DNA from: Stegostoma tigrinum
Taxonomy: Eukaryota
Direction: 5' to 3'
Assembly (NCBI RefSeq): GCF_030684315.1
Contig: NC_081354.1
Span: forward strand, 130,983,314-131,047,313
DNA length: 64,000 nucleotides
Shown here: in pieces, positions 12,256 to 56,274 of the stretch
Position numbering within the stretch: the stretch's first letter is position 1
Layout of the letters: the number at the start of each line of letters is the position of its first letter
The notes under the pieces: model-generated
What the model saw: the letters and a program-made list of their open reading frames with translations, nothing else
What the model was told of the DNA's origin: nothing
Databases searched by the model: none
Made by a program: the position numbers and the translations under genes

Positions 12256-12415
12256 ATCTAGCAAGTGTATTATACAAGTTCAAAATCACTTCCTTGTTAT
12301 TGTACTCTATTCCCCAGTTTAAAAAAAAGCTGAGGACACTATATACTTTATTAACTGCTCTCTATAGTTGTCCTGTCACCTTGAATGATCTGTGCAGCCA
12401 AGTCCCTTTGCTCCT

Positions 12416-12820
12416 GAGATAATGGGAACTGCAGATGCTGGAGAATCCGAGATAACAAAGTGTGGAGCTGGATGAACGCAACAGGCCAAGCAGCATCTTA
12501 GAAGCACAAAGGCTGACTTTTGGGCCAAGACCCTTCATCAGAAAAGGGGGATGGGGAGAGGATTCTGAAATAAATAGGGAGAGAGGGGGAGGTGGGCCGA
12601 AGATGGATAGAGGAGAAGATAGGTGGAGAGGAGAGTATAGGTGTGTAGGTAGGGAGGGGATAGGTCAGCCCAGGGAAGACGGACAGGTCAAGGGGCGGGA
12701 TGAGGTTAGGATGTAGGAAAGGGAGGTGCGGCTTGCGGTGGGAGGAGGGGATAGGTGAGAAGAAGAACAGGCTAGGGAGGCGGGGACGAGCTGGGCTGGT
12801 TTTGGGATGCAGTGGGGGCA
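12416..12820 (-). mobile_element. 5'-truncated PLE (family A): C-rich 3' region plus terminal repeat
   Basis: Collinear with the reverse complement of about 55800-56199. Confidence 0.85.
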
Positions 12821-13065
12821 GTCTTTGTTGTTAAAGTTGATCTTGACACCAGTTATTTGTTGATGATTTGAATCATCAGTATAGTGTAATTTGTAAAATC
12901 CTTGAGTTTATGCTGAAAGGATGATTTGCTGATATGTTTTTCCACCAATGCAGGCTTTCGAGATGATGAGAACAAAAGAAGGAGACAGAGATAGACCCCT
13001 CCAATCCTTTTTGGTGCCAATCAATTTTCTCTCTCTGCTGCGCTACCAAGCAGCTACTGAAATAT

Positions 13066-13160: not shown

Positions 13161-13579
13161 ATGCGAAATGTTCTACTGAAACATGTTTCATTCATGTATT
13201 CACCAATCTGACTCCATTGTGTCTCCATTAGGGATAGTTGTCAGAAGATTTCAGGAAGGCCTGGTATAAGAACATAAGAATGTAACAGACAGGAGCAGGA
13301 ATAGACCATCTGGCCCATCAAGCCTGCTCTACCATTCAATAAGATCATGGCTGATCTTTTCATGGACTCAGCTATAATTCATTGAAACAGTTATCAAACA
13401 GGTAAAGTACAGTTCTTTTATTTTCTTTTTCTAAATTATCCCTTAAATGTATCTGTCTGCACCTCCATCAGTGTGTGAGAAGGAATTTATATTCAAAAAA
13501 GAGCAGGCTTAAATCACAGAATTTTGTTGCCTTGCGGTTCATCAGTGTTCTGCTAAAGTTGCATTAATAATATAAAGTG

Positions 13580-13797
13580 ATAATGGGAACTGCAGATGCT
13601 GGAGAATCCAAGATAATAAAATGTGAGGCTGGATGAACACAGCAGGCCCAGCAGCATCTCAGGAGCACAAAAGCTGACGTTTCGGGCCCAGACCCTTCAT
13701 CCTCTCTGATGAAGGGTCTAGGCCCGAAACGTCAGCTTTTGTGCTCCTGAGATGCTGCTTGGCCTGCTGTGTTCATCCAGCCTCACATTTTATTATC
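13580..13797. mobile_element. PLE family A inverted (hairpin) insertion
   Basis: About 92-bp inverted arms (13610-13701 / 13708-13799, 2 mismatches, 6-nt loop); 16-bp direct repeat TTAATAATATAAAGTG at 13564-13579 and 13798-13813. Confidence 0.92.
13702..13737 (+). ncRNA. Minimal type I hammerhead ribozyme (intact core)
   Basis: CTGATGA (13706-12), extra A, GGG/TCTAGG/CCC stem II, GAAAC (13726-30), GTC (13731-33); predicted cleavage after C13733. Confidence 0.75.
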
Positions 13798-14439
13798 TTA
13801 ATAATATAAAGTGTTAATTTTTGTATAAGTTATAAATTTGATGTCCAAGGTTTGATTTTTGTAAAGCCTGCTTAGGAACAATTAAGCAATTTTGAGAGTC
13901 ATCGAAGTTTTAAGATCACTGCGTTGTGAATCCAATGATATTGAGGGTCATTTGTCTTGTTGTAACAGTGAAATAATAATATATTACTGTGGAATGATAG
14001 AATCTTTATTCAAAAATATCTGCATGATAATATTTGCTGACAAACATACTTAGCAAGGAATGATATAAAGCAATAACTTAATAAATCTTTTTGGACTACC
14101 AACTTTATTCAATTTATTAATCCCATAAGACCTGATTCTTCATGTTCTTGTACTCCTTGGATGTTTTGAGTTAAAACTGCAGCTCTGGCTAGCATCTGAA
14201 GAGGGCATTTGCCCCATCTGTTCACCTTTCCCAAGCTCAAACAGAAAATTGAGTTGGTTGCCATTCATGCATCAGGGCACTCTGGCTGAAGACAGCACTT
14301 GTAATCTTCATATCTATACAACCACAAACTTAGGCCCGAACATGCCTTGTTCCATTCTTTCTTAACATAAATGTGCACCTTCACTGTGTAGAATTAACCT
14401 GTGGCAGATTAATATTTTTGAAAACAAGTGTATAAAGTG

Positions 14440-22020: not shown

Positions 22021-22139
22021 GGGCAATCGACCAAGTGCAGGTTGATGAGATTGGAGTAATTTGGTGTTTGTTTGATAGTGTAGGCATGGTGGGCCAAAGG
22101 ACCTGTTTCTCTCCTGCATGACTCATGATTCAAAATGGC

Positions 22140-24069: not shown

Positions 24070-25440
24070 TGTCATGGAGTAATAAAGTCCTACAGCACAA
24101 AACCAGGCCCTTCAGCCCAAACAGGTCTATGCCAAACGACATGTCCAACCATGCTAACCCCACTTCCCTGCAATTGGCCCATATTCTCCTAAACGTGACC
24201 TGTCTATGTATTTGTCCAAATGCCTTTTAAATGTTGTTAATGTATCTGTCTCATCCACTTCTGCTGGCAGCTTGTTCCAAATGTGTACCACCCTCTGTGT
24301 AAAAACACTTGCCCGTCAGGTTCCGTGCATCCTTTCCCCTCTTAGTTCAAACTGATGCCCTTTAGTCCTCGATTCCCCAACGCTGGGAAAAAGACTGAGT
24401 GCATTCACCCAATCCATGCATCTCATGATCTTATACACTTCTATAAGACCCCCGTAATCTCCTAAAGAAAAACGTCCTAGCTTGTCCAACCTCTCCCTAT
24501 AACTCAGTCCCTTGAGTCCCAGCAACATTCTTGGAAACTTCTTCTGCACTCTTTCCAATTTAATAATATCTTTCCTATAGCAAGGTGGGCAAAACTGAGC
24601 ACAATACTCCAAGTGCAGCCTCACCAACATCCTGTACAACTGCAACATGGCTTCCCAACTTCTGTACTCAATGCCCTGACTGATGAAGGCCAGTATGCCA
24701 AAAGCTTTCTTCACTGCCCTATCTACCTGGGACTCCACTTTCAGAGACCTGTGAACCTGAATTCCAAGGTCCCTTTCTTCCACTATATTCCTAAATCCCC
24801 ACCATTCACAATAAAGCTCCTACCTTGATTTGACTTTCCAAAACACAATAGCTCACAGTTATCTGTGTTAAATCCCATTTGTTGTTTCTCAGCCCACTTT
24901 CCCAGTTGATCTAGATTCATAGAATCCCTACAGTGTGGAAACAGGCTCTTCAGCCCAACAAGTCCACACCGACCCACAGAGCATCCCACCTAGACCCATC
25001 CCCCTAATCCACATATCCATGAACACTACGGGCAATTTAGCATGGCCAATCCACTTTGCCTGCACATCTTTGGACTGTGGGAGGAAACCGGAGCATCCAG
25101 AGGAAACCCACGCACACACCGGGAGAATTTGCAAACTCCACACAGTCACCTAAGAGTGGAATTGAACCTGGGCTCCTGGCGCTGTGAGGCAGCAGTGCCA
25201 ACCACTGAGCCACTGTGCTGTGATCTTGTTGCAATTTCTGATAACCTCCCTCACTGTCTATGATACTGCTTATTTTAGTGTCATCTGCAAATTTACTAAT
25301 CCTGCCTTGTACATTGTCATCCAAATCATTGATATAGATATGAAAAAACAATGGACCCAGCACAGACCCCTGAGGCACACCACTAGCCATAGGCCTCCAG
25401 TCTGACAAGCAACATTCTACTATTACCCTCTGCATCTTAC
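24070..25440 (-). mobile_element. CR1-type LINE RT/3' fragment split by a SINE
   Basis: SGVPQGSVLGPLFFHIYINDLD...KFADDTK (25037-25435) and LEYCAQF...LERVQKKF (24316-24783). Confidence 0.9.
24913..25220 (-). mobile_element. HE1-type tRNA-derived SINE
   Basis: A box TGGCTCAGTGG and B box GGTTCAATTCC on the - strand; TSD TGATCT (24907-12 / 25221-26). Confidence 0.9.
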
Positions 25441-25572
25441 CATTATGTTCTCCAATGATGTATGCTGGGAGTCATTCACATAGATCCCCAGAGGAGATAT
25501 CTTGCCACTGTCTCTTATATTCCCACCTGCAATGAATTCTATTAGGTGTACAGCCTTGCACATATGCATGAG

Positions 25573-25910
25573 GGGGAGGCAATAGCCTTGTGGTATTATC
25601 GCTGAACCGTTAATCCAGAAACTCAGTTAACATTCTGGAGACCTGGATTTAAATCCCGCCATGGCAAATGGTGGAATTTGAATTCAATAAATATCTGGAA
25701 TTAAGAATCTAATGATGGTTGTGAATCCATTGTCGATTGTTGGAAAAAAACAGTATTGTTCACTAATGCTATTTAGGGAAGGAAACTGCCATCCTTACCT
25801 AGTCTGGCCTACATGTGACTCCAGACCCACAGCAATGTGGTTAACTCTTCACTGGGAAATTAGGGATGGGCAATAAATGGTATCTAGCCAGCAATGCTCT
25901 CATCCTGTGT
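25573..25910 (+). mobile_element. tRNA-derived SINE, family B
   Basis: Collinear with 21192-21570. Confidence 0.8.
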
Positions 25911-28145: not shown

Positions 28146-28654
28146 GTATCACTGAAAAGATTGATTTCTGTGTTTCAGCTACAAAGTGAGCCAATTTCCA
28201 CCTTATTTCTGATACACCTTCATCAGTGATTCAACAGCATCTGAGCACACATAAAAGGGACGTATATACATTCGACAGGAAGAATTCGAGGGTTTGAGTT
28301 AGAAGGAGAGGCTGAATAGACTGGGACTTTCTTTCCATGAGGCGTAGGAGGTTAAGGACTTAACTTTTGGAAGTTTATAAGATCATGTGAGGCATAGAAA
28401 AGGTGAATAGCAAAGGCCTTTTCCCTAGGGTAGGAGAGCTCAAAGGTAGAGGATATAGGTTTATGATGACAGGGAAAATTGATTAAAAGGGACCCTAAGG
28501 GAAGATTTTTCACACAGAGGGTGGTGCATATATGGAACAGAAGGAGCAGAAGAGGCAAATCAAAACAAACTGGACTATGATCTCTTGTGACTACAGTGAT
28601 AACCCCAGACTTGAAAGCAGGTCTCCCCCTACAGGGGGAATCACAGAGAATCTG

Positions 28655-29990
28655 ATAAAGAACATAGAACATAGAACATAGAACATTACAGCACAGTACA
28701 GGCCCTTCAGCCCTCGATGTTGTGCCGACCTGTCATACCGATTTCAAGCCCATCTAACCTACACTATTCCATCTACGTCCATATGCTTATCTAATGACGA
28801 CTTAAATGTACCTAAAGTTGGCGAATCTACTACCGTTGCAGGCAAAGCGTTTTATTTCCTTACTACGCTCTGAGTAAAGAAACTACCTCTGACATCTGTC
28901 CTATATCTTTCACCCCTCAATTTAAAGCTATGCCCCCTCATGCTCGCCATCACCATCCTAGGAAAAAGGCTCTCCCTATCCACCCTATCTAACCCTCTGA
29001 TTATTTTATATGTTTCCATTAAGTCGCCTCTCAACCTTCTTCTCTCTAATAAAAACAGCCTCAAGTCCCTTAGCCTTTCCTCGTAAGACCTTCCCTCCAT
29101 ACCAGGCAACATCCTAGTAAATCTCCTCTGCACCCTTTCCAAAGCTTCTACATCCTTCTTAGAATGCGGTGACCGGAACTGTACGCAATACTCCAAGTGC
29201 GGCCGCACCAGAGTTTTGTACAGCTGCAGCATAACCTCTTGGTTCCAGAACTCGATCCCTCTATTAATAAAAGCTAAAACACTGTATGCCTTCTTAACAG
29301 CCCTGTCAACCTGGGTGGCAACTTTCAATGATCTGTGTGCATGGACACCGAGATCTCTCTGCTCATCTACACTACCAAGAATCTTCCCATTAGCCCAGTA
29401 CTTTGCATTCCGCTTACTCCTATCAAAGTGCATCACCTCACACTTGTCTGCATTAAACTCCATTTGCCACATCTCAGCCCAGCTCTGCAGCTTATCTATG
29501 TCTCTCTGCAACCTACAGCATCCTTCCTCACTGTCCGCAACTCCACTGACCTTAGTGTCATCTGCAAATTTACTAACCCATCCTTCTACACCCTCATCGA
29601 GGTCATTTATAAAAATGACAAACAGCAGTGGACCCAACACCGACCCTTGTGATACACCACTAGTAACTGGTCTCCAGGATGAACATTTCCCATCAACTAC
29701 CACCCTCTGTCTTCTTTCAGCAAGCCAATTTCCAATCCAAACTGCTATATATCCCACAATTCCATTTGTCTGCATTTTGAACAATAGCCTACTATGGGGA
29801 ACCTTATCGAACGCCTTGCTGAAATCCATATACACCACATCAACCGGTTTACTCTCATCTACCTGTTTGGTCACGTTCTCAAAGAACTCAATAAGGTTCG
29901 TGAGGCACGACCTTTCCTTCACAAAACCGTAGACAATGACGAGTTAAAGATCAATGCCAAAGGCTCGGCAATCTCCTCCCTGGCTTCCCA
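28655..29990 (-). mobile_element. Young 5'-truncated CR1-type LINE
   Basis: (ATAGAAC)n tail at about 28655-28686 and an uninterrupted RT frame. Confidence 0.95.
28852..29922 (-). CDS. CR1 ORF2 reverse transcriptase, partial, open for 356 aa
   Basis: YMDFSKAFDKV, SGVSQGSVLGPLLF, KFADDTK, RPHLEYCVQF. Confidence 0.8.
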   Translation of the reverse strand: MKERSCLTNLIEFFENVTKQVDESKPVDVVYMDFSKAFDKVPHSRLLFKMQTNGIVGYIAVWIGNWLAERRQRVVVDGKCSSWRPVTSGVSQGSVLGPLLFVIFINDLDEGVEGWVSKFADDTKVSGVADSEEGCCRLQRDIDKLQSWAEMWQMEFNADKCEVMHFDRSKRNAKYWANGKILGSVDEQRDLGVHAHRSLKVATQVDRAVKKAYSVLAFINRGIEFWNQEVMLQLYKTLVRPHLEYCVQFRSPHSKKDVEALERVQRRFTRMLPGMEGRSYEERLRDLRLFLLERRRLRGDLMETYKIIRGLDRVDRESLFPRMVMASMRGHSFKLRGERYRTDVRGSFFTQSVVRK

Positions 29991-30289
29991 GGGAGAGAGA
30001 CGATATTCCTGTGGCTTAATCTGTTGGGTTATGGGCCTTCCCCTCCTTACAGCCTTACATTCCAATCGGCTCTATTTTACCACTTGAACATCAGCCACAT
30101 TGAGTTAGCATCCTCCGCACTCTGTAGGGAAACAATGCCACCATCGACAAAGGGTGAGGCTGCAAGATCGCTGCCTAATCAGGCTGTTAACAACGTTAAT
30201 TGGCTGCCTGTTTCCGTGGAGCAATGGGAATTCCCATCAGTGGAAATACATTACAGAGCAGTACTGTAAACAACAAATGATGGAGACCA

Positions 30290-30806
30290 GAGATAGCAAG
30301 AACTGTAGATGCTAGAGTCAGAGGTAACACAGTGTGGAGCTAGAGGAACACAGCAGACCAGGCAGCATCAGAGGAGCAGGAAAGCTGATGTTTCAGGGCG
30401 GAACCCTTCTTCAGAACTGAGGAGGGCAAAAGGAGCTTGGAAATAAATAGGGAGTGGAGGAGTGAGGCTAGGAAAAGTAGTTTGGAGGGAAGATAGACAT
30501 GTTGTGTCAGGTTGGGGAGGCGGGAATGAGAGGGAGGATTGGGCATAGCATGAGGCCAGGGGTGGGGAGATTTTAACACTCATAAATTCCATGTTTAAGC
30601 CATTGGGCTGTAGGCTCCTGAGGTGGAATATGAGGCGCTGCTCCTCCAGTTTGCAGATGGTGTCATTGTGGCACTGAAGGAGGCCCAGGACGGATATGTC
30701 ACCAGGGAGTGGGAGGGGGCGACCAGAAGGCGTTGTTGTTTGTCATGTACATAGTGCAGATGCTCTATGAAACAATCTCTGAGTCTTTGCTTAGTCTCAC
30801 CAATGT
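30290..30806 (-). mobile_element. Degenerate PLE family A copy (GIY-YIG C-terminus plus terminal repeat)
   Basis: The - strand encodes IGETKQRL and KLEEQRLIFHL; terminal repeat at about 30290-30416. Confidence 0.8.
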
Positions 30807-37340: not shown

Positions 37341-37544
37341 ATTATAATTGGCCAGTAATGATGTGGAGGCCAATGTGGGGGTGCCGGTGTTAAACTGGGG
37401 TGGGCAAGGTCAGAGGTCACACGACACCGGGTTATAGTTCCGACAGGTTTATTTGAAATCACAAGCTTTCAGAGCATTGCCCCTTCATCAAGTTGGCTCC
37501 AAAAGCTTGTGGCTTCAAATAAACCTGTTAGATTGTAACCTGGT

Positions 37545-37636
37545 TAACAAAGTGTGGAGCTGGATGAACACAGCAGGCCAAGCAGCATCTCAGGAGCACA
37601 AAAGCTGACGTTTCGGGCCTAGGCCCTTCATCAGAG
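37545..37636 (-). mobile_element. Solo 92-bp PLE family A repeat
   Basis: 15-bp TSD AGATTGTAACCTGGT (37530-44 / 37637-51). Confidence 0.92.
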
Positions 37637-37638
37637 AG
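37604..37638 (-). ncRNA. Minimal type I hammerhead ribozyme (intact core)
   Basis: - strand: CTGATGA-A-GGGCCTAGGCCC-GAAAC-GTC-AG. Confidence 0.75.
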
Positions 37639-37802
37639 ATTGTAACCTGGTGTCGTCTGACTTCTGACATTAATATTCTATCTTATCAAATTTGCCAAAC
37701 AAGCAAGAGGCTGATAAATCTCAACAAGTAAATCAGAGTGGGTGGTTGGTAACTTTATCTCATTGCTTGCCCTCAATGTTGGACACTGGGCAACACCATC
37801 AT

Positions 37803-37897
37803 AGAGTAACAAGGGGTAGAGCTGGATGAACACAGCAGGCCAAGCAACATCAGAGGAGCAGGAAAGCTGATGTTTCAGGCCTAGGCCCTTTTTCAGA
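37803..37897 (-). mobile_element. Solo PLE family A repeat, degenerate hammerhead
   Basis: Family A match; core reads CTGAAAA...TGAAACATC. Confidence 0.8.
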
Positions 37898-37989
37898 ATA
37901 TGCTGCATTTACAGACATTAGCGTCTGCTAGACATAGCCTCTAACTATCCTAATCTCTGACCTAGACAGTGATACCCTCGGGCAATGAA

Positions 37990-38515: not shown

Positions 38516-41290
38516 GCCTCAGAGACATGGTTGCAGGGATTTCAGGACTGGCAGTTAAGCATCCAAGGATTCACAACATAACGAAAAGATGGGGAGGTGG
38601 GCAGATGGGGTGGGGTTGCCTTGTTAGGCAAGAATGAAATTAAATCTAAGGCACTGAATGACATAGGTTCAGAGGATGTGGAGTCTGTGTGGGTGGAGTT
38701 GAGGAACACAAAGGCAAAAAAACCATAATGGGAGTTATGTACAGACCTCCTAACAGTGATCAAGACCAGGGGCGCAAGATGCACCGAGAAATAGATAGGG
38801 CACGTCAGAAAGGCAAGGTCACGTTAATCATGAGGGACTTCAATATGCAGGTGGACTGGGTGAATAATGTTGCTAGTGGATCCAAAGAAAAGGATTTCAT
38901 GGAATGTTTACAGGATGGCTTTTTGGAACAGCTTGTGATGGACCCCACAAGGGAGTAGGCTATTCTGGACTTAGTGCTATGTAATGAGCATGACTTTATA
39001 AAAGACTTTAAAGTAGGGAAACAATTGGGAGGCAGCGATCATAATATGGTAGAGTTCAGTCTGCAGTTTGAAAGAGAGAAGGCAAAATCGGATGTAATGG
39101 TGTTACAGTTAAATAAAGGTAATTACAGGGGCATGAGAGAGGAATTGACGAAAATCAACTGGAAGCAGAGCCTAGCGGGGAAGACAGTAGAGCAACAATG
39201 GCAGGAGTTTCTGGGTGTAATCGAGGACACAGTACAGAGGTTCATCCCAAAGAAAAGAAAGATTATCCGGGGTGGGATTAGACAGCCATGGCTGACAAAG
39301 GAAGTCAGGAAATGTATCAAAGAAAAAGAGACAGCCTATAAAGTGGCCAAGAGCACTGGGAAATCAGACGCTTGGGAAGGCTACAAAAACAAACAGTGGA
39401 TAACAAAGAGAGCAATAAGGAAGGAGAAGATCAAATATGAAGGTAGGCTAGCTAGTAATGTTAGAAATGATAGTAAAAGCTTCTTTCAATACATAAGAAA
39501 CAAACGAGAGGCAAAAGTAGACATTGGGCCGCTGCAAATCGATGCTGGAAGGCTAGTGATGGGAGATAAGGAAATAGCTGAAGAACTTAATAAGTGCTTT
39601 GCATCAGTCTTCACAGTGGAAGACATGAGTAGTATGCCAACAATTAGGGAGAGCCAGGGGGCAGAGTTGAGTATGGTAGGCATTACAAAAGAGAAAGTGC
39701 TAGAAAACTAAAAGGTCTAAAAATTGATAAATCTCCTGGCCCCAATGGGCTACATCCTCGAGTTCTGAGGGAGGTGGCTGAGGGAATAGCAGAGGCTTTC
39801 GTCATGATCTTTCAAAAGTCACTGGATTCTGGGAAAGTCCCAGATGATTGGAAAATTGCTGTTGTAACTCCCTTGTTTAAGTAAGGATCAAGGCAAAAGA
39901 TGGAAAATTATAGGCCGATTAGCCTAACCTTGGTTGTTGGTAAAATTCTAGAATCCATCGTTAAGGATGAGATTTCTAAATTCTTGGAAGTACAGGGTCG
40001 GGTTAGAACAAGTCAACATGGATTTAGTAAGGGGAGGTCGTGCCTGACAAACCTGTTAGAATTCTTTGAAGAGGTAACAAGTGGGTTAGACCAGGGAAAC
40101 CCAGTGGATGTTATCTATCTAGGCTTCAAAAAGGCCTTTGATAAGGTGCCTCATCGGAGGCTGCTGAGTAAGGTGAGGGTCCATGGTGTTCGAGGTGAGC
40201 TACTGGCTTGGATTGAGGATTGGCTGTCTGACAGAAGGCAGAGAGTTGGGATAAAAGGCTCCTTTTCAGAATGGCAACCAGTGACAAGTGGTGTCCCGCA
40301 GGGTTCAGTGTTGGAGCCGCAGCTGCTCACTTTATATATTAATGATCTGGATGAAGGGACTGGGGGAATTCTGGTGAAATTTGCTAATGATATGAAGATA
40401 GGTGGACAGGCAGGTAGTATTGAGGAGGTGGGGAGGCTGCAGAAAGATTTAGACAGTTTCGGAGAGTGGTCCAGGAAATGGCTGATGAAATTCAACGTGA
40501 GCAAATGCAAGGTTTTGCACGTTGGCAAGAAGAATACAGGCATGGACTATTTTCTAAGCAGTGAGAAAATTCATAAAACAGAAGAACAAAGGGTTGGTCC
40601 AGGATTCTCTAAAGGTTAACGTGCAGGTAGAGTCCGTGATTAAAAAAGCAAATGTAATGTTGTTGTTTATCTCAAGAGGGTTGGAATATAAAAGCAGGGA
40701 TGTTCTTCTGAGACTTTATAAAGCTCTAGTTAGGCCCCATTTAGAATCCTGTGTCCAATTTTGGGCCCCACACCTCAGGAAGGGAATACTGGCACTGGAA
40801 TTTGTCCAGCGGAGATTCTCATGGATGATCCCTGGAATGGTAGGCCTAACATACAATGAGTGGCTAAGGATCCTGGGATTGTACTCATTGGAGTTTAGAA
40901 GGTAGAGGGGAGACCTATTAGAAACTTACAAGATAATGTATGGCTTCGAAAGGGTGGGTGCTGGGAAGCTGTTTCCATTAGGCGGGAAGATTAGGACCCA
41001 TGGGCACAGCCTTAGAATTAGAGGGGGTAAATTTAAAACAGAAATAAGGAGACATTTCTTTAGCCAGAGAGTGGTGGGCTTGTGGAATTCATTGCCAGTG
41101 CAGTGGAGGCCGGGACGTTAAGTGCCTTGAAGGTAGAGTTCAATAAATTCTTGATCTCACGAGGAATCAAGGGCCACGGGAAAAGTGCAGGGAAGTGGAG
41201 TTGAAATGCCCATCAGCCATGATTTAAATGGCAGAGTGGACTTGATGGGCCGAATGGCCTTACTTCCACTCCTATGTCTTATGGTCTTAT
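38516..41290 (+). mobile_element. CR1-type LINE, most of ORF2 (endonuclease plus RT) with stops and frameshifts
   Basis: YRPPNS, RDFN, GGSDHNMVEF, NYRPISLT, SGVPQGSVL; tail TATGTCTTATGGTCTTAT. Confidence 0.95.
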
Positions 41291-41498
41291 AATAGGAACT
41301 GCAGATGCTGGAGAATCCGAGATAATAAGATGTAGAGCTGGATGAACACTGCAGGCCAAGCAGCATCACAGGAGCAGGAAGGCTGACATTTAACGCCTGG
41401 ACCCTTCATCAGGGTCTAGGCCCGAAACGTCAACCTTTCTGCTCCTGTGATGCTGCTTGGCCTGCTGTTTTCATCCAGATCTACACCTTGTTATCTCA
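41289..41498. mobile_element. PLE family A hairpin insertion
   Basis: Inverted arms meet at about 41410; TSD TAACTTCAGACC at 38493-38504 and 41499-41510. Confidence 0.85.
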
Positions 41499-41955
41499 TA
41501 ACTTCAGACCAGACTGGCATGGTCTGACATCATGGCCTCCACTACTGGACCTGGGAAAAGGAAGTCCCACCAGTAACATCACCTAGCAGCAATTGCATCC
41601 AGCAGCACCTCCAGGTCCCTGTCCATATAGCAAGGACCCAATTTCCCCTTGTCTGAGGCAAGTGTCAGGCTCTGGGCAGTGTAACTCTGGTTTGTCTGGG
41701 TATGCAACAGGTTATTAAAGATGGCAAGCTGCATAGATGAATTGCACAATTTCTGTGGAGTGTCAAGTTGTTCAGGGAATGACGCATGATAACAAGAGGC
41801 CAAGTTTGGACATGAGAGATGCCATAGGATATGGTTGGTAGCTAATATGGTGAGTGAAAAGACACAGTGAGAGAACTCAATCAGTCTTACAGCTAAAAAA
41901 ATTGGTGAGAAACTCAACACAACTCAGACTTTTTCAAAAACTGTAAGATTCAACC
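41499..41955 (-). mobile_element. Harbinger Myb/SANT relic (continues at about 38410-38504)
   Basis: KGKLGPCYMDRDLEVLLDAIAAR resembles the Harbinger Myb/SANT N-terminus (PRFSDxDLEVLLDAV). Confidence 0.6.
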
Positions 41956-42247
41956 CACAGTTTATTAATTACTAAACGTGAGTAGTAACAGTAAAGCAAT
42001 ACAAATACACACAGTTTCTAAATAAGATGTGAGTCCACATTATAAAGGTTAAAAAATAGTGGATCTGTCTGTGAATTGTTCACAAAGAGCAGATAGATAA
42101 ATCTTGTGGGCATAACCATGGATGAAACTGGTAGCATTTACATTGGCAGTTGAACAGTCGATTTTGAGAATCTTGGCTATGTAGCCGATTGAAATTCTTT
42201 GTTCTGATTCCTTTTGGCAGAGGCTGACTGGCAACACTCAAGGTGAA

Positions 42248-43530
42248 AGATAATACAGTGTGAAGCTGGATGAACACAGCGGGCCAAGCAGCATCAGAGG
42301 AGCAGGAAAGCTTGACGTTTCGGGTCGGGACCCTTCTTCAGAAATGGGGGAGCAGAAGGGGATTCTGAAATAAACAGGGAGACGGGGGATGCGGATAGAA
42401 GATGGATAAAGGAGAAGACAGGGTGAGAAGAGACAGACAGGTCAAAGAGGCAGGGTTAGAGTCAGCGAACGTGAATGTAGGTGGGGAGTTGGGGGGATAG
42501 GTCAGTCCAGGGAGGACGGACAGGTCGGGGGGTGCATGCGGGATGAGGGTAGTGGGTGGGGGATGGGGGAGGGTCTTGATGTGGGAGGAATGGTTAGGGA
42601 GGCGGGGACTAGCTGGGATGGTTTTGGCATGTGGTCGGGGGAGGGGAGATTTTGAAGCTTGTGAAGTCCACATTGATACCATTGGGCTGCAGGGTCCCCA
42701 AGCGAAATATGAGATGCTGTTCCTGCATCTTTCGGGTGGCATCATTGTGGCAATGTAGGTGGCCCAGCATGGACATGTTGTCCGAGGAGTAGGGGTGGGA
42801 ATTGAAATGGTTCGCGACTGGGAGGTGCAGCTGTTTGTTGCGAACAGCACGTAGGTGTTCCGCAAAGTGGTCCCCAAGCCTTTGTTTGGTTTCACCAATG
42901 TAGAGGAGGCTACAACAGGAACAGCAAATACAGTATATCACTTTGACAGATGTGCAGTGACCATCTGTTTGATGTGAAAAGTCTTCCTTGGGCCTGGGAT
43001 GGGGGTGAGGGAGGAGGTGTAGGGGCAGGTGTAGAGCTTACTTCAGTTGCAGGGAAAAGTGCCGGGTGGTGGGGCTGGAGGGGAGTGTGGAGCAGTCAAG
43101 GGATTCGTGGAGAGAGCGGTCCCTCCGGAAATCACATCAGGATGGGGAGGGAAAAATGCCTTTGGTGGTGGGGTCGGATTGCAGATGGCGGAAATGTTGG
43201 AGGATGATGCGTTGGATTTGGAGGTTGGTCGGGTGGTACGTGAGGACGAGGGGGATTCTGTTTTGGTTATTATTGTGGATAGCGGGTGTGAGGGATGAGT
43301 TGTGGGAAATGTGGGAGACACGGTCGAGGGCATTTTTGATCACTGTGGAGGGGAAGTTGTGATTTTTGAAAAAAACAGGACATCTGGGATGTTCGGGAGT
43401 GGAATGCCTCATCTCGGGAGCAGGTGCGACAGAGGCGAAGGAATTGCGAATAGGGGATGGCACTTTTATAGGAAGGTGAGTGAGAGGAGGAATATTCTTG
43501 GTAGTTGTGGGAGTTGGTAGGCTTAAAATG
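42248..43530 (-). mobile_element. 5'-truncated Neptune-type PLE (RT C-terminus, Cys linker, GIY-YIG, terminal repeat)
   Basis: AIPYSQFLRL, RIPLVLTYHP, GTFPCN..YTCPY, IYCICCSCCSLLYIGETKQRLGDHFAEHL; frameshifted. Confidence 0.92.
42311..42344 (-). ncRNA. Minimal type I hammerhead ribozyme (intact core)
   Basis: - strand: TTT-CTGAAGA-A-GGGTCCCGACCC-GAAAC-GTC-AAG. Confidence 0.7.
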
Positions 43531-43917
43531 GACTCAAAGTAAGAGAGTCTTTTCCCTTTCTTTGCCTACAACGCAGGGATGTTTAATATGTTGTTCTCAC
43601 CTGAAAACCTGAGTTCAGATCCTACAATTACCCACAGGCTAGGTTGTATTTGCATATTCCTGGAAGGCCAAAACACAATAACTCTGCAAAAAGTAGCTTT
43701 CTGCTGATGGGGGTTGGGGGCGGGGGGAGAAACAGCATCTCATTATCTCTTCCTTTTATATTTCTCCCTCTGTTAAAGTTTCCTTAACACAGTGCAGGTG
43801 CCAGCATTTATTGTCAATCCCAGTTAAGAATCAATCATATTGCTGTGATCTAGAGTCACTTCATAAAAATTTATCTCATTTCTACCTTCCTTCTCTTCTG
43901 AACAAGAGGTATAAATT

Positions 43918-45737: not shown

Positions 45738-47243
45738 CTTAATGAAGAACAAATAATTCTAGGCTATGGGAGAAATGTCAGGTCAACGTAAAATTGATTA
45801 ATTCTTTTTAACAAACCAGTACAAAGCGACACAAGTCCTTTACTTCCACTGCATCATTCTGTGAAAACCTTATAAGTTGAACTTTCAAACAGATAGGAAG
45901 GAATGCTTCTGAAAGCAGCATCTAGTAATATAATTACCAAAGAGTTAAATTTATTGCATCGTACTACAAGATCATTGAAACTCTGCTTTGGATTACTGAA
46001 AAATAACACAGTTTTACAGTAATATAAATTCTGATTTTACTGGTTTCATTTCAGTATTTCATCTCAAACCAAAATTCCAAATGTTTAAAATGCTTAAATC
46101 CTGATGGTTCTATGGGAAAAGAGCTTGAGACAACATGGAGCCATTGTTTATTTATTTCATGAATTTTCAATTACTTTGTTATTCCAGTGATGATTTGCAT
46201 TGTTGTAATATTCCATCAGATGAGGATTACCCACAACATTTTAAATTGCTATTTAGTATATTCATCACAGGGCTATTTTTCAGCTATGTATATTGTGAAA
46301 GAATACCTTATTAGATGACCTGTTGGACCTTTGGAATCTCAGTTTTAAGGTGATGTGATGTCTGGCTGCCTGCATCTTTGTAATTTCAAGAAGATGACAA
46401 GATAAATATTTACTTTAGACACAATCAATGTTTGACTATCATTCATTTGCACTGGATATCAAAATTATATCCTTTATATTAGTAATAATAATAACTTTTA
46501 AATGCAAGGCCAGCACAGTACAGTTTGCCAACAATTATTCAGTTTTTCCAAACTTGGTGAGGCATTCCAATAGAAAGCTGTCTCTAACTCTCTCAACCAT
46601 TTATTCTTACAGAGTAAAGCAATTTCTCAGTGATGGATTAGTGCATTCCTTTTGGAGTTCAATGTTTATTTTTCCTTCTTTAACATTCATCCTTGAAGCT
46701 GCAATCAGCAACACACATGTTAAATAACATTTGTTCCCCGATTTTCTAGGTAAAGAGATATTCAGAAGGATGCACAGTGATAATGGAGGAACAGTGATAC
46801 ATTTCCCAAGTCAGGACAGTGAATGGTTGAGAGAAGAATTTGCAGGAGTTGGGATTCAATGTATCTGCTGCCCTCATCCTTGCTGTCTGAGGAGCCTTGG
46901 TGAGTTTCTGCATTTTGTAGATTTCACAGACTACTGGTCCAGTAGTGGATGGCAGTGTGGACTTCATCAAGGTCAGAAAACCACTTTTCTTTAGAATCGT
47001 TGTACAAGTTATGTATCTGACGTAAGTAGACATGACAATGAGATTTTGCTTGAGCTGTAGTTGAAGTGTCATGAGTCTCGTTTATAGTATTGGGGAGTTC
47101 TGACAGTGCTCCTATTCCAGATAGCGAAACCAAATTCCTTTCCAGAAAGACAATGCTGGAAGGACAAATGATATCAACCTGAGAACAGCCGGAGGTTCCC
47201 ACTCTGACAGGCCCAAGCTGAGTGTATGTCGATAGGATATTCT

Positions 47244-48205
47244 GTATGAAGGGACTGTAGGTATTCTGGCAAAGTTTGCCAATGACACGAAGATAGATGG
47301 GCAGGCAGGTAGTACTGAGGAGGTGGGGAGGCTGCAGAAAGATTTAGACAGTTTAGGAGAGTCGTCCAGGAAATGGCTGATGAAATTCAACGTGAGCAAA
47401 TGCGACGTCTTGCACTTTGGAAAAAAGAATACAGGCATGGACTATTTTCCAAACGGTGAGAAAATTCATAAAACAGAAGTACAAAGGGATCTGGGAGTGT
47501 TGGTCCAGGATTCTCTAAAGGTTAACTTGCAGGTAGAGTCTGTGATTAAGAAAGTGAATGTAATGTTGTCGTTTTTCGTAAGAGGGTTGGAATATAAAAG
47601 CAGCGATGTGCTTCTGAGACTTTATAAAGATCTAGTTTGGCCTCATTTAGAATCCTGTGTCCAATTTTGGGCCCACACCTCAGGAAGGACATACTCGCAC
47701 TGGAGTGTGTCCAGCGGAGATTCACACGGATGATCCCTGGAATGGCAGGCCTAGCATACAATGAATGGCTGAGGATCCTGGGATTGTACTCTTTAGAGTT
47801 TAGAAGGTTGAGGGGAGATCTAATAGAAACTCACAAGATAATGTATGGCTTAGAAAGGGTGGACGCTGGAAAGTTGTTTCCATTAGGCAGGGAGACTATC
47901 ACCCTTGGGCACAGCCTGAGAATTAGAGGGGGTCAATTTAAAACGGAAATGTGGAGACATTTCTTCAGCCAGAGAATGGTGGGCCCGTGAAATTCATTGC
48001 CACGGAGCGCAGTGGAGGCCGGGCGTTAAATGTCTTCAAGGCAGAGATTGATAAATTCTTGATCTCACAAGGAATTAAGGGCTACAGGGAGAGTGCAGGG
48101 AAGTGGAGTTGAAATGCGCATCAGCCATGATTAAATGGCGGAGTGGACTCGATGGGCCAAATGGCCTTACTTCCACTCCTATGTCTTATGGTCTTATGGT
48201 CTTAC
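47244..48205 (+). mobile_element. CR1-type LINE 3' kb, same subfamily as 38516-41290
   Basis: Closely similar to about 40350-41290, including the diagnostic PHLESCVQFW; (CTTATGGT)n tail; sits in an older CR1 fragment extending to about 48520. Confidence 0.92.
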
Positions 48206-48805: not shown

Positions 48806-48865
48806 AGCTTTTGTGCTCCTAAGATGCTGCGTGGCCTGCTGTGTTCATCCAGCTCCACACTTTGT
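48806..48865 (+). mobile_element. 60-bp PLE family A fragment
   Basis: AGCTTTTGTGCTCCT...CTCCACACTTTGT flanked by TAACA (48800-04 / 48866-70). Confidence 0.8.
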
Positions 48866-50199
48866 TAACACCGCAATGAAGTCTGACTTAAGAGAAGACC
48901 CTTTTAACAATGTGTCTAACAACATATACCATATCTTTGTACAGTTAAAGGAGCGGTACAGCTGCAATAAACTATATTTTGTTTGCTAAAAGACATCTTC
49001 TAGTTTGACCAGAAGCTAGCTATCCTCATCCACACAAACTGTGTAGGCCCTGGAGAAACATATGATTAGATGATATAGATGGCAGTACATACACAAGTAA
49101 TGATTTTGAGCCTCACTGCAATACAATACACAGGGCTATATTAAATGATGTACCACAGTGCATCCCCAATATTGTCCTGTTTCCTTCTTTGTCACTAATT
49201 AAAGTGTTTATGCTGCTTACTGATATATAGTTCCATCAGTGCTGACAATCTTTCACACCTTCATGTATGAGCTTCAGCAGTGAGTGTATTTTGACTATAG
49301 ATGACATTACATCTTAGATTTTTGATACCCTTCACCTATAGGTAAGAACTTGCAATTTCTGGAAGAGTGGTCAAATATCCATCAAAAGGGGCAAAACCTG
49401 GATTTTTTTTGTCATTTCGAGTGCAGAAGTATCGAGGCTAATTGCAGTGGCACTACAATTTTCTGACTGATATTATTGTAAAAGTTAATGTTGCATATTT
49501 GTACCAAAGCATATGGCTCCTCTCACATTAGAGACAGACAAATAATAGTGGTTAAACTGGAGGGTCATCGCACCTCACATGGGGGAGAATTTGATTCCTT
49601 CGTGGTAACCTTAGCCAGTATGGGAATTGTACCTATACCGTTAGCATCAACATATCCACTCCTTTGACTAATAGCCATGACTCATTGCCTTGACATATGA
49701 AATGTTTCCTGTCCATTCTGTGAGTTGGGTATCCATTCCTGGCAGCAACATTCCAATGAAAGGTGCTGTGAAGTGCAGCATTGAAGATAAGAAGTATAAT
49801 GTAAGTGGGTTGAAGATGTACCATGGTGTTGCAGTGAAGATGCAGCTATACATCAAGGATGCCGAGGACCTTGGGAGCAGGGTGTGCATGGTCATTGCCT
49901 AGTAATGTGCCCTGAGATGTTGGTGTCTAATGTTCAACATACATGTTGACAGGAACAAATAGTGAACTGGTTAGTGGAGTCACGACATCTAGTTTCTATT
50001 CAGCAGTTAGGAGAATAGGAAACTGTATAATCAATAAAAAGGTTAACTTTTATAGTACAACAGCAAAGTGAAGCAAAAAAAAACAAAAAAGTGCTTAATT
50101 TACTTCTGCAAACAAACAGGGAAAGCTTGCCTTTCAAGCAGCAACAGATCTACAGAACGATCACTTCACCCAACTGTCAGAACTGGAGGTCAACTCAGT

Positions 50200-54910: not shown

Positions 54911-55409
54911 TATTTAAAAACTTTCTACCCGACATTGGGTAGCTGGTCGAAGTCTGTTCTATTCAGCATTAACCAGATCTTACATGCAATTTAATCAGCA
55001 GCTTAAAGGGACGGCTGGTGAACAGAACAAAAAGATTAGTTTTGATTTTTTTTAAATGCACTTGCATTTCTGCAAACTGCACACAAGTCACCAAATATTG
55101 TTTGTCCCTGATTGTCTAACTAGATCATCACATCACCGTGACCCCCTCAGCCATCTTTCCCCATGCCAGATCTTGCCTGAACATGCTGCCATAATTGTAA
55201 CAGCCCAAAATTGGTGTCAATCTCTGAAGGGATTTTGGGGATGGGTATCTGCTGTCCACAGCTTTCTGATCTAATTTCTATGAGGTCAAACATCTGACTT
55301 CAGTTGGGCTTGAGGTCTACCTGTTCCTGCACGGACACTTTATGTGCAACCACTTTGTACTAGCATGTTGGTATTCTTGCATTTCCCCTAACAGGGTTCA
55401 ATGAAAGTC

Positions 55410-56199
55410 ACATCTGCCAATGTGGTATACTGCATCCACCGTACCCGGTGTGGCTTCCTCTACATTGGGGAAACCAAGCGGAGGCTTGGAGACCGCTTTG
55501 CAGAACACCTCCGCTCAGTTCGCAACAAACAACTGCACCTCCCAGTCGCAAACCATTTCCACTCCCCCTCCCATTCTCTAGATGACATGTCCATCATGGG
55601 CTTCCTGCACTGCCACAATGATGCCACCCGAAGGTTGCAGGAACAGCAACTCATATTCCGCCTGGGAACCCTGCAGCCATATGGTATCAATGTGGACTTC
55701 ACCAGTTTCAAAATCTCCCCTTCCCCTACTGCATCCCTAAACCAGCCCAGTTCATCCCCTCCCCCCACTGCGCCACACAACCAGCCCAGCTCTTCCCCCC
55801 CACCCACTGCATCCCAAAACCAGTCCAACCTGTCTCTGCCTCCCTAACCGGTTCTTCCTCTCACCCATCCCTTCCTCCCACCCCAAGCCGCACCCCCAGC
55901 TACCTACTAACCTCATCCCACCTCCTTGACCTGTCCGTCTTCCCTGGACTGACCTATCCCCTCCCTACCTGCCCACCTATACTCTCTCCACCTATCTTCT
56001 TTACTCTCCATCTTCGGTCCGCCTCCCCCTCTCTCCCTATTTATTCCAGTTCCCTCTCCCCATCTCCCTCTCTGATGAAGGGTCTAGGCCCAAAACGTCA
56101 GCTTTTGTGCTCCTGAGATGCTGCTTGGCCTGCTGTGTTCATCCAGCCTCACATTTTGTTGTCTTGGAATTCTCCGGCATCTGCAGTTCCCATTATCTC
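55410..56199 (+). mobile_element. Young 5'-truncated Neptune-type PLE (GIY-YIG plus terminal repeat)
   Basis: VVYCIHRTRCGFLYIGETKRRLGDRFAEHL...LGTLQPYGINVDF; 12-bp TSD TCAATGAAAGTC (55398-409 / 56200-211). Confidence 0.95.
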
Positions 56200-56274
56200 T
56201 CAATGAAAGTCTTGTCAATTTTCAAGTTATTTATGTAGCTAATATTGAATGCAAAAGCACGTTGAAGTTAAAGA

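Follow-up and report, generated by a model that had tools for sequence, protein, structure and literature searches.

A complete minimal hammerhead motif in a Penelope-like element of Stegostoma tigrinum, predicted to be silent at an inverted insertion

Hammerhead core and inverted insertion at the locus

The window analyzed here is a 64-kb stretch of Stegostoma tigrinum DNA (contig NC_081354.1). Its plus strand at 13706-13733 reads CUGAUGA, A, GGGU, CUAG, GCCC, GAAA, CG and UC in succession, which by sequence and by descriptor match corresponds to a minimal type I hammerhead core. In the hammerhead numbering used in the text of PMC4209133, C3 to A9 are located at 13706-13712, an extra A at 13713 and G12 to A15.1 at 13726-13729, followed by C15.2/G16.2, U16.1 and C17 (13733). 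A13713 is unpaired between A9 and G10.1, and G13714 and C13725 form the G10.1-C11.1 pair. The initial annotation had reported all core nucleotides present and a cut after C13733. The letters agree, and the cut site is predicted between C13733 and A13734. Stem II (13714-13725) consists of 4 bp, GGGU/GCCC, with a CUAG loop, as indicated by the fold and by pair counts; this form is favored over the 3 bp and 6-nt loop drawn initially. Stem III has no loop and is reduced to the ACGU palindrome at 13729-13732, which can pair only with a second copy. Stem I (13704-13735) was described as very short and measures 2 bp, CU at 13704-13705 with AG at 13734-13735. In a fold model, two copies can be paired through ACGU into a double hammerhead, and the initial view that the collapsed, palindromic stem III implies a dimer stands. 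An extended stem I formed through distal CAUCUC/GAGAUG was rejected. It appears in the fold of one copy and is absent from the other long copies.

A minimal hammerhead descriptor matched the window exactly three times, at 13706 on the plus strand and at 37634 and 42341 on the minus strand. In 200 Markov-resampled windows the mean was 0.03 matches and the maximum was 1. The plain pattern CTGATGA-gap-GAAA is barely over chance, with 5 matches versus 1.6 expected. A search against Rfam found no hammerhead at gathering score in the whole window. At E<=10 it returned 19 weak matches for 13400-14000, mostly microRNA precursors and no hammerhead; the microRNA-precursor matches arise because the locus forms a hairpin. 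By every sequence feature tested, the motif is the minimal hammerhead of Penelope-like elements (PLEs), and its self-cleavage is a prediction.

The copy at 13706 is one half of an inverted insertion, a setting absent from the initial annotation. The segments 13610-13701 and 13708-13799 form 92-bp inverted arms that are 98% complementary (90 of 92 positions, two mismatches). The right arm (13702-13799, plus strand) is a PLE end piece that starts 4 nt ahead of C3, ends at the family’s first 3’ end point (~66 nt past the cut) and has no tail. The left arm (13579-13701, minus strand) is an inverted PLE end piece that begins at G5, C3 and U4 being lost, and includes a tail of ~30-35 nt (~13579-13609). 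The arms are therefore unequal, with a tail on the left arm only. A 16-bp target-site duplication flanks them, with an AT-rich left copy at 13564-13579 and a right copy at 13798-13813.

The 234-nt locus folds as a single hairpin at -187.7 kcal/mol (z -27). In a 600-nt context, the mirror arm pairs with all positions from G5 through the cut, and the stem II closing pair forms with a predicted probability of 5e-18. The nearest copies on the same strand are located at 1977 and 41404, 11.7 and 27.7 kb away. Because the copy at 13706 faces its own mirror copy, its hammerhead is predicted to be silent. The isolated core is also predicted to favor an inactive CUGAUG/CGUCAG duplex, at -11.4 versus -3.6 kcal/mol for the hammerhead. 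The double hammerhead is predicted at -5.5 kcal/mol, far above the best inactive dimer at -38.0 kcal/mol, so that activity may be lost completely in the shark motif. All of these values are secondary-structure energies, in which tertiary contacts and protein are ignored.

The invariant AG past the cut (13706-13735) pairs equally well with C3-U4, which yields the inactive CUGAUG/CGUCAG hairpin. Such a hairpin could act as an intrinsic off switch, to be released by protein binding.

The parent element and its family

A BLAST search with the locus found 16 family copies in the window. Three are intact and 13 are truncated or changed in the core or stems, in line with the initial report of decay in other copies of the family. 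The intact cores at 37607-37634 and 42314-42341, recognized initially, are both on the minus strand and match the descriptor. The latter reads CUGAAGA (N7=A) and carries one additional A after C17. Twelve of the 16 copies are outside head-to-head pairs. The window contains two such pairs, and the joint of the second (41286-41496) is inside the hammerhead core. None of the 16 copies is arranged head-to-tail, and a tandem retrozyme identity was rejected on this ground.

The solo short copy with an intact core at 37545-37638 (minus strand) has a 15-bp target duplication. It sits inside another repeat (37400-37545 and 37640-37665). Near 37480-37495 the minus strand of that repeat contains a stretch resembling CTGATGAAGGGGCAA, and the repeat may represent a second hammerhead-bearing family. 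Remnants of LINE-type reverse transcriptases are found at 24159-25854, 28286-29943, 38662-41500 and 47236-48200. Two of them match RVT_1 at E 1e-24 to 1e-25, and an endonuclease piece is located at 38662-38955. We take these remnants to be CR1/L2-like.

Several longer copies connect the motif to a parent element. Three of the 16 (56072 plus, 42341 minus and 30414 minus) are located directly 3’ of GIY-YIG remnants. The copy at 55410-56200 (plus strand) is a 5’-truncated PLE with a GIY-YIG fragment, a pyrimidine-rich 3’ UTR, a G12A core (56072-56099) and a tail. The fragment, hammerhead and tail are one insertion, because they share their own 12-13 bp target duplication. The copy at 42247-43545 (minus strand) is a broken PLE comprising the C-terminal part of the reverse transcriptase, a decayed linker, GIY-YIG, the 3’ UTR and the intact core. 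At 30288-30804 (minus strand), a decayed GIY-YIG remnant precedes a hammerhead copy, also decayed (C3 at 30414), with its tail. The 3’ UTR, hammerhead (G12A) and tail are retained at 12414-12821 (minus strand), where the copy at 12541 is preceded by the same 3’ UTR as the GIY-YIG-linked copies.

GIY-YIG Pfam scores of the window fragments are weak (E ~1e-3, below the Pfam cut-off). The fragment at 55392 is 95% identical to a Stegostoma reverse transcriptase and endonuclease protein, its best match, and 91% identical to a Rhincodon protein. Both proteins contain the end of the reverse transcriptase, a cysteine linker and the endonuclease. RVT_1 and GIY-YIG are found together in two proteins (P0002 and P0020), and tblastn indicated continuity of reverse transcriptase and endonuclease. 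In tblastn, the C-terminus of the Stegostoma protein also reads through the same hammerhead letters. Among 15 homologs the linker cysteines C318 and C323 are invariant and C326 nearly so; the linker is decayed in the window copy. The CX2-5CxxC linker is assigned to the Neptune and Nematis clades in the text of PMC8557442. By sequence, the family is the pseudo-LTR end of a Neptune/Nematis-type endonuclease-bearing (EN+) PLE, the clade being read from the linker motif only. The initial assignment to a minimal type I hammerhead in a PLE terminal repeat is borne out by the GIY-YIG remnants directly 5’ of three copies and by the features given in the text of PMC4209133.

Short tandem duplications at 55700-55850, directly past the endonuclease coding end, prolong the reading frame into the 3’ UTR. 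Translation of the Stegostoma gene model P0001 continues through the UTR and hammerhead, and the model is probably an annotation artefact.

Two subfamilies differ just past the cut, UUUUGUG..GAG versus UUUCCUG..CUG, and at N7, mostly U versus A. Both retain an ATG ~18 nt past the cut and a frame of ~27 codons ending at the tail end (56100-56205 and other copies). In contigs of sequencing run X4, depth-weighted changes at CpG positions of the core reach 11.5% at C11.1, ~22% at G12, 12% at C15.2 and 16% at G16.2. These changes fit neutrally decaying copies. In X5, a small sequencing run, core CpG decay is ~3-7%, well below X4, and A>G changes past the cut exceed those in X4, with ~10% at 56100 and 18% at 56116. 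The kind of run is not on record, so this pattern cannot be read as expression or editing. One sequencing run contains 136,928 contig pieces of the family, which should not be taken as a count of copies. No match to an exact 31-nt pattern of the family was found in metagenome, viral and prokaryote collections.

The initial annotation also stated that stem II keeps pairing while its sequence varies. In its three examples GGG/CCC is constant, and variation is confined to pair 4 (U-G, C-G, U-A) and the loop. Among the 16 window copies, pair 4 is U-G in seven, U-A in four and C-G in two, and the three G-C pairs are altered mainly by CpG decay. The covariation score of these copies was reached by 198 of 500 shuffles and is not significant. 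Covariation within the family is therefore not established, and this part of the annotation failed its test.

We also analyzed distant relatives in a metagenome scan of 80 loci with 33-57% protein identity. The match reaches the endonuclease end in 67 loci, and 58 of these have at least 300 nt downstream. A sense-strand minimal hammerhead is found within 700 nt past the endonuclease in 21 of the 58 loci, whereas the antisense strand gave 0 of 58 and shuffled sequences 0 of 1160. A relaxed scan gave 42 matches in 37 of the 80 loci, two of which look like chance. In most, the geometry matches that of the shark copy: the extra A is present in 39 of the 42 matches, the CG palindrome in 34 and a 4-bp stem II, GGGC/GCUC, in 30. 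Stem I is 3 bp (GCU/AGC) in 24 of the 42, versus 2 bp in the shark copy. The main class of relatives has the same 28-nt geometry, with ACGU and AGCUUU. Other classes have the stems GAGGC/GCCUC, GGCA/UGCC and GUUAUA/UAUAAC. The specific position and strand in relatives are the stronger argument that the motif is a selected part of the element lineage.

A U4C subfamily, with CCGA for CUGA, accounts for 13 of the 42 matches (e.g. L002:1322-1349), and its stems are otherwise intact. In the text of PMC3088659, U4C lowers activity in vitro, yet viroid infectivity is supported.

When five copies of the window were aligned with 21 relatives from the 28-nt class, stem II was 94.5% paired and 0 of 500 shuffles were as good, with only four two-sided cells and rows chosen for pairing. 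Because the relatives were selected by a descriptor that demands stem II pairing, this cross-lineage covariation is supporting, not decisive.

Copy ends and joints at the predicted cut site

The family has two 3’ end points, ~62-66 and ~96-105 nt past the cut and ~35 nt apart. In contigs of four sequencing runs, loose 3’ ends are found at 56160/56164 and 56200. The 5’ ends are also clustered. Among 12 short window copies, nine start within -5 to +2 of C3 and one at +7; the other two begin at the cut or immediately before it (p ~5e-11 in a uniform model, scan-corrected). The most frequent 5’ loose end in X4, in 876 contigs with heterogeneous AT-rich flanks, falls on the base preceding C3 (56071), a peak that may be sharpened by aligner collapse on the variable pyrimidine tract. 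It is also found in X5 and X9. The starts at the core edge probably mark the 5’ end of the RNA. The X4, X5 and X9 data are contigs, in which RNA ends are not visible. A sequencing-run search listed no RNA run among those that contain the family, a result with no bearing on expression. In the relatives, 26 truncated copies spread from -93 to +98 with no 5’ peak at the core edge or the cut site; these loci were ascertained by endonuclease matches.

A minority of ends coincide with the cut itself. The short copy at 48806-48867 (plus strand) begins at the first base past the predicted cut. The window copy at 22045 (minus strand) and the relative L055 are not cut-site copies, because both start 2 nt before the cut. 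Joints with intervening letters were displayed for the best-supported 12 of 105, 11 of them from X4. Five of these 11 head-to-tail joints resume exactly at 56100, the first base past C17. They leave from the 3’ end points 56157, 56199 and 56200 and carry five different linkers of 1-4 letters. The probability of five of 11 at this base is ~1e-8 in a uniform model, the rows not being independent. Three of the five share a start point, their depths (49-187) are small, and the kind of run is not on record. These joints are a possible trace of cleavage in vivo. Rare tandem joints are thus found in the species outside the window, in contigs.

The best-supported plain X4 joint, 56157-56200 (58 contigs), connects the two 3’ end points on opposite strands. 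It corresponds to inverted copies joined tail to tail, the opposite arrangement to the head-to-head pairs in the window.

The structure at 13579-13799 and the joints suggest the following mechanism. As in the Anolis PLE in vitro (PMC11167929), the element protein would nick both strands of an AT-rich target. Two cDNAs would be primed on opposite strands at two internal start sites. Both would run as far as the 5’ border of the core, which is probably where the RNA begins. Joined head to head, they would give exactly the structure at 13579-13799. Most templates would be uncut, and a minority were likely already cut at C17. In the simplest reading of the cut+1 joints, the reverse transcriptase would run off a cut RNA and resume at a start site on another template. 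The genome may thus hold a fossil record, in which most short copies are run-offs of uncut RNA and a minority, including the cut+1 tandem joints, come from cut RNA. We propose this tentatively and give it a little less than an even chance.

Alternatively, the cut+1 joints could stem from fresh insertion events in pre-existing copies, at a DNA hot spot whose position matches the cut site by coincidence. PLEs do insert into their own pseudo-LTRs (the texts of PMC6765202 and PMC11167929). In the same set, further joints resume at 56068, 56070, 56116-56119 and 55984. Resumption at 56100 is found in 0 of the 15 displayed joints without intervening letters (15 of 58), and 56100 is absent among the loose ends listed (six per run; 558 others). 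On the other side, the Anolis endonuclease prefers 5’-ATT-3’ in the text of PMC11167929, which is unlike GTC|AGC, and the five joints fall on a single pre-specified base. We consider an insertion hot spot somewhat unlikely.

Activity of the hammerhead and comparison with known systems

Taken together, a complete minimal hammerhead very probably occupies the pseudo-LTR of an EN+ PLE, in a head-to-head arrangement at this locus that is predicted to silence it. In the same reading, cutting in the parent element is likely slow and confined to the dimer, probably with aid from the element’s own protein.

This reading agrees with the class of minimal hammerheads in metazoan PLEs described by Cervera and De la Pena in 2014 (PMC4209133). 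According to the text of that paper, a Schistosoma hammerhead showed no activity as a monomer and only weak activity as a dimer. Features in common include the CUGANGA core, the extra base between 9 and 10.1, the G10.1-C11.1 pair, the palindromic 15.2-16.2 without loop III, the type I topology, the pseudo-LTR position, and mostly solo truncated copies with some opposite-strand pairs. With 4 bp in stem II and 2 bp in stem I, the shark motif is among the shortest in the published alignment, and the shark opposite-strand pair differs in that it abuts directly and buries the core. A palindromic, collapsed stem III and the dimer model are shared with the short-stem-III PLE hammerheads that cleave as dimers (Lunse, Weinberg and Breaker 2016, as cited in PMC6765202 and PMC6466107).

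The element itself resembles the Neptune/Nematis PLEs (Craig et al. 2021, text of PMC8557442) in its reverse transcriptase, CX2-5CxxC linker, C-terminal GIY-YIG and pseudo-LTR. An inverted 5’-truncated partner and a 30-40 bp tail are also described PLE traits there and are found in the shark family, whereas the window contains broken copies only. The type I hammerhead in a short, PLE-related non-coding repeat is shared with non-LTR retrozymes, which are reported from one cartilaginous fish in the text of bioRxiv 10.64898/2026.07.22.740005. Those form tandem arrays with a hammerhead per unit, whereas the 16 shark copies are dispersed or head-to-head.

The closest functional comparison is the Anolis PLE (PAc; Frangieh et al. 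2024, PMC11167929). Its hammerhead cut only with the element’s protein and was dispensable for insertion, and no RNA-seq reads were found at the cut. Its tail was traced to two internal start sites of reverse transcription, with both target strands nicked and extended. The shark family appears to have in common with this Poseidon element a hammerhead followed by two internal start sites, AT-rich targets, nicking and extension of both strands, and uncut RNA as the main template. PAc belongs to the Penelope/Poseidon clade, whereas the shark family has the CX2-5CxxC linker. A second difference is at the cut site, where a minority of shark genomic joints resume exactly.

The shark motif may instead be a vestige, in which the letters are kept by descent or for another job, such as protein binding or a promoter, and even the parent element does not cut. 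Stem I is one pair shorter than in the 24 relatives’ matches with 3 bp, the inactive core duplex is predicted to dominate, and most short copies include the uncut core. Insertion was normal for the Anolis hammerhead mutants, and RNA-seq gave no reads with an end at the cut (text of PMC11167929). Against this, helix I ranges from 2 to 5 bp among published PLE hammerheads, the lower limit being that of D. virilis (text of PMC4209133). Protein divergence of ~50% has left the core, extra A, ACGU and stem II in place. The five of 11 displayed X4 joints at cut+1, from three 3’ end points, and the copy at 48806 also speak against a vestige. We regard loss of cutting in the shark lineage as unlikely.

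The initial annotation proposed that the family supplies large numbers of unannotated ribozymes. The abundance of the motif stood; the idea of working copies did not, in view of the hairpin, the CpG decay and the inactivity of published monomers. In favor of dispersed intact copies that cut host transcripts genome-wide, three of 16 copies within 64 kb have a perfect core and the family is very abundant. The copies at 37545-37638 and 37806-37898 (both minus strand) are 262 nt apart and constitute the only possible cis dimer in the window, but the partner at 37896 carries G8A and a broken palindrome. The copy at 13706 is buried in its hairpin, with its same-strand neighbors 11.7 and 27.7 kb off, and the CpG positions of the core have decayed by 11-22%. 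Monomers are inactive in vitro (text of PMC4209133), and eight of nine Xenopus retrozyme dimers were uncut (text of bioRxiv 10.64898/2026.07.22.740005). No host exon was found in the 150 of 210 non-repeat reading frames scanned (58 or more aa, to ~49.9 kb), the sole Pfam match being the LINE endonuclease piece. Genome-wide cutting of host transcripts is therefore very improbable. A MITE or microRNA-like hairpin gene at 13564-13813 with an incidental hammerhead likeness, suggested by the near-perfect 92-bp arms and weak microRNA-precursor matches (best 39.4 bits), was rejected, since the arms derive from the end of a PLE, differ in length by the tail and lie between the copies of the 16-bp duplication, 12 of 16 copies are not head-to-head, and every Rfam match is far under gathering score.

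The hammerhead class has been known since 2014, and the copy at 13706 is predicted to be inert. In the literature text searched, we found no paper on the shark family or on genomic copies starting at the cut; figure supplements could bear on this point. A word search of part of the supplement text of PMC4209133 found no shark terms. The supplement text of PMC11167929 gave no matches, and its Fig. S2 on genomic ends could bear on novelty.

In the head-to-head pairs with a tail on one arm, priming of both strands at two internal start sites can be read compactly from the genome. A question for the field is whether minimal hammerheads ever cut in cells. In the one purified system, cutting took place only with protein and was not needed, and no RNA reads were located at the cut (text of PMC11167929). 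With about one copy per 4 kb in the window, the question becomes testable from DNA, by counting 5’ junctions at the core edge versus C17+1. If the genome does hold a fossil record of cut and uncut RNA, a count of each class would be the first in vivo evidence that a minimal hammerhead of a metazoan Penelope element cleaves, and would allow the rate to be estimated.
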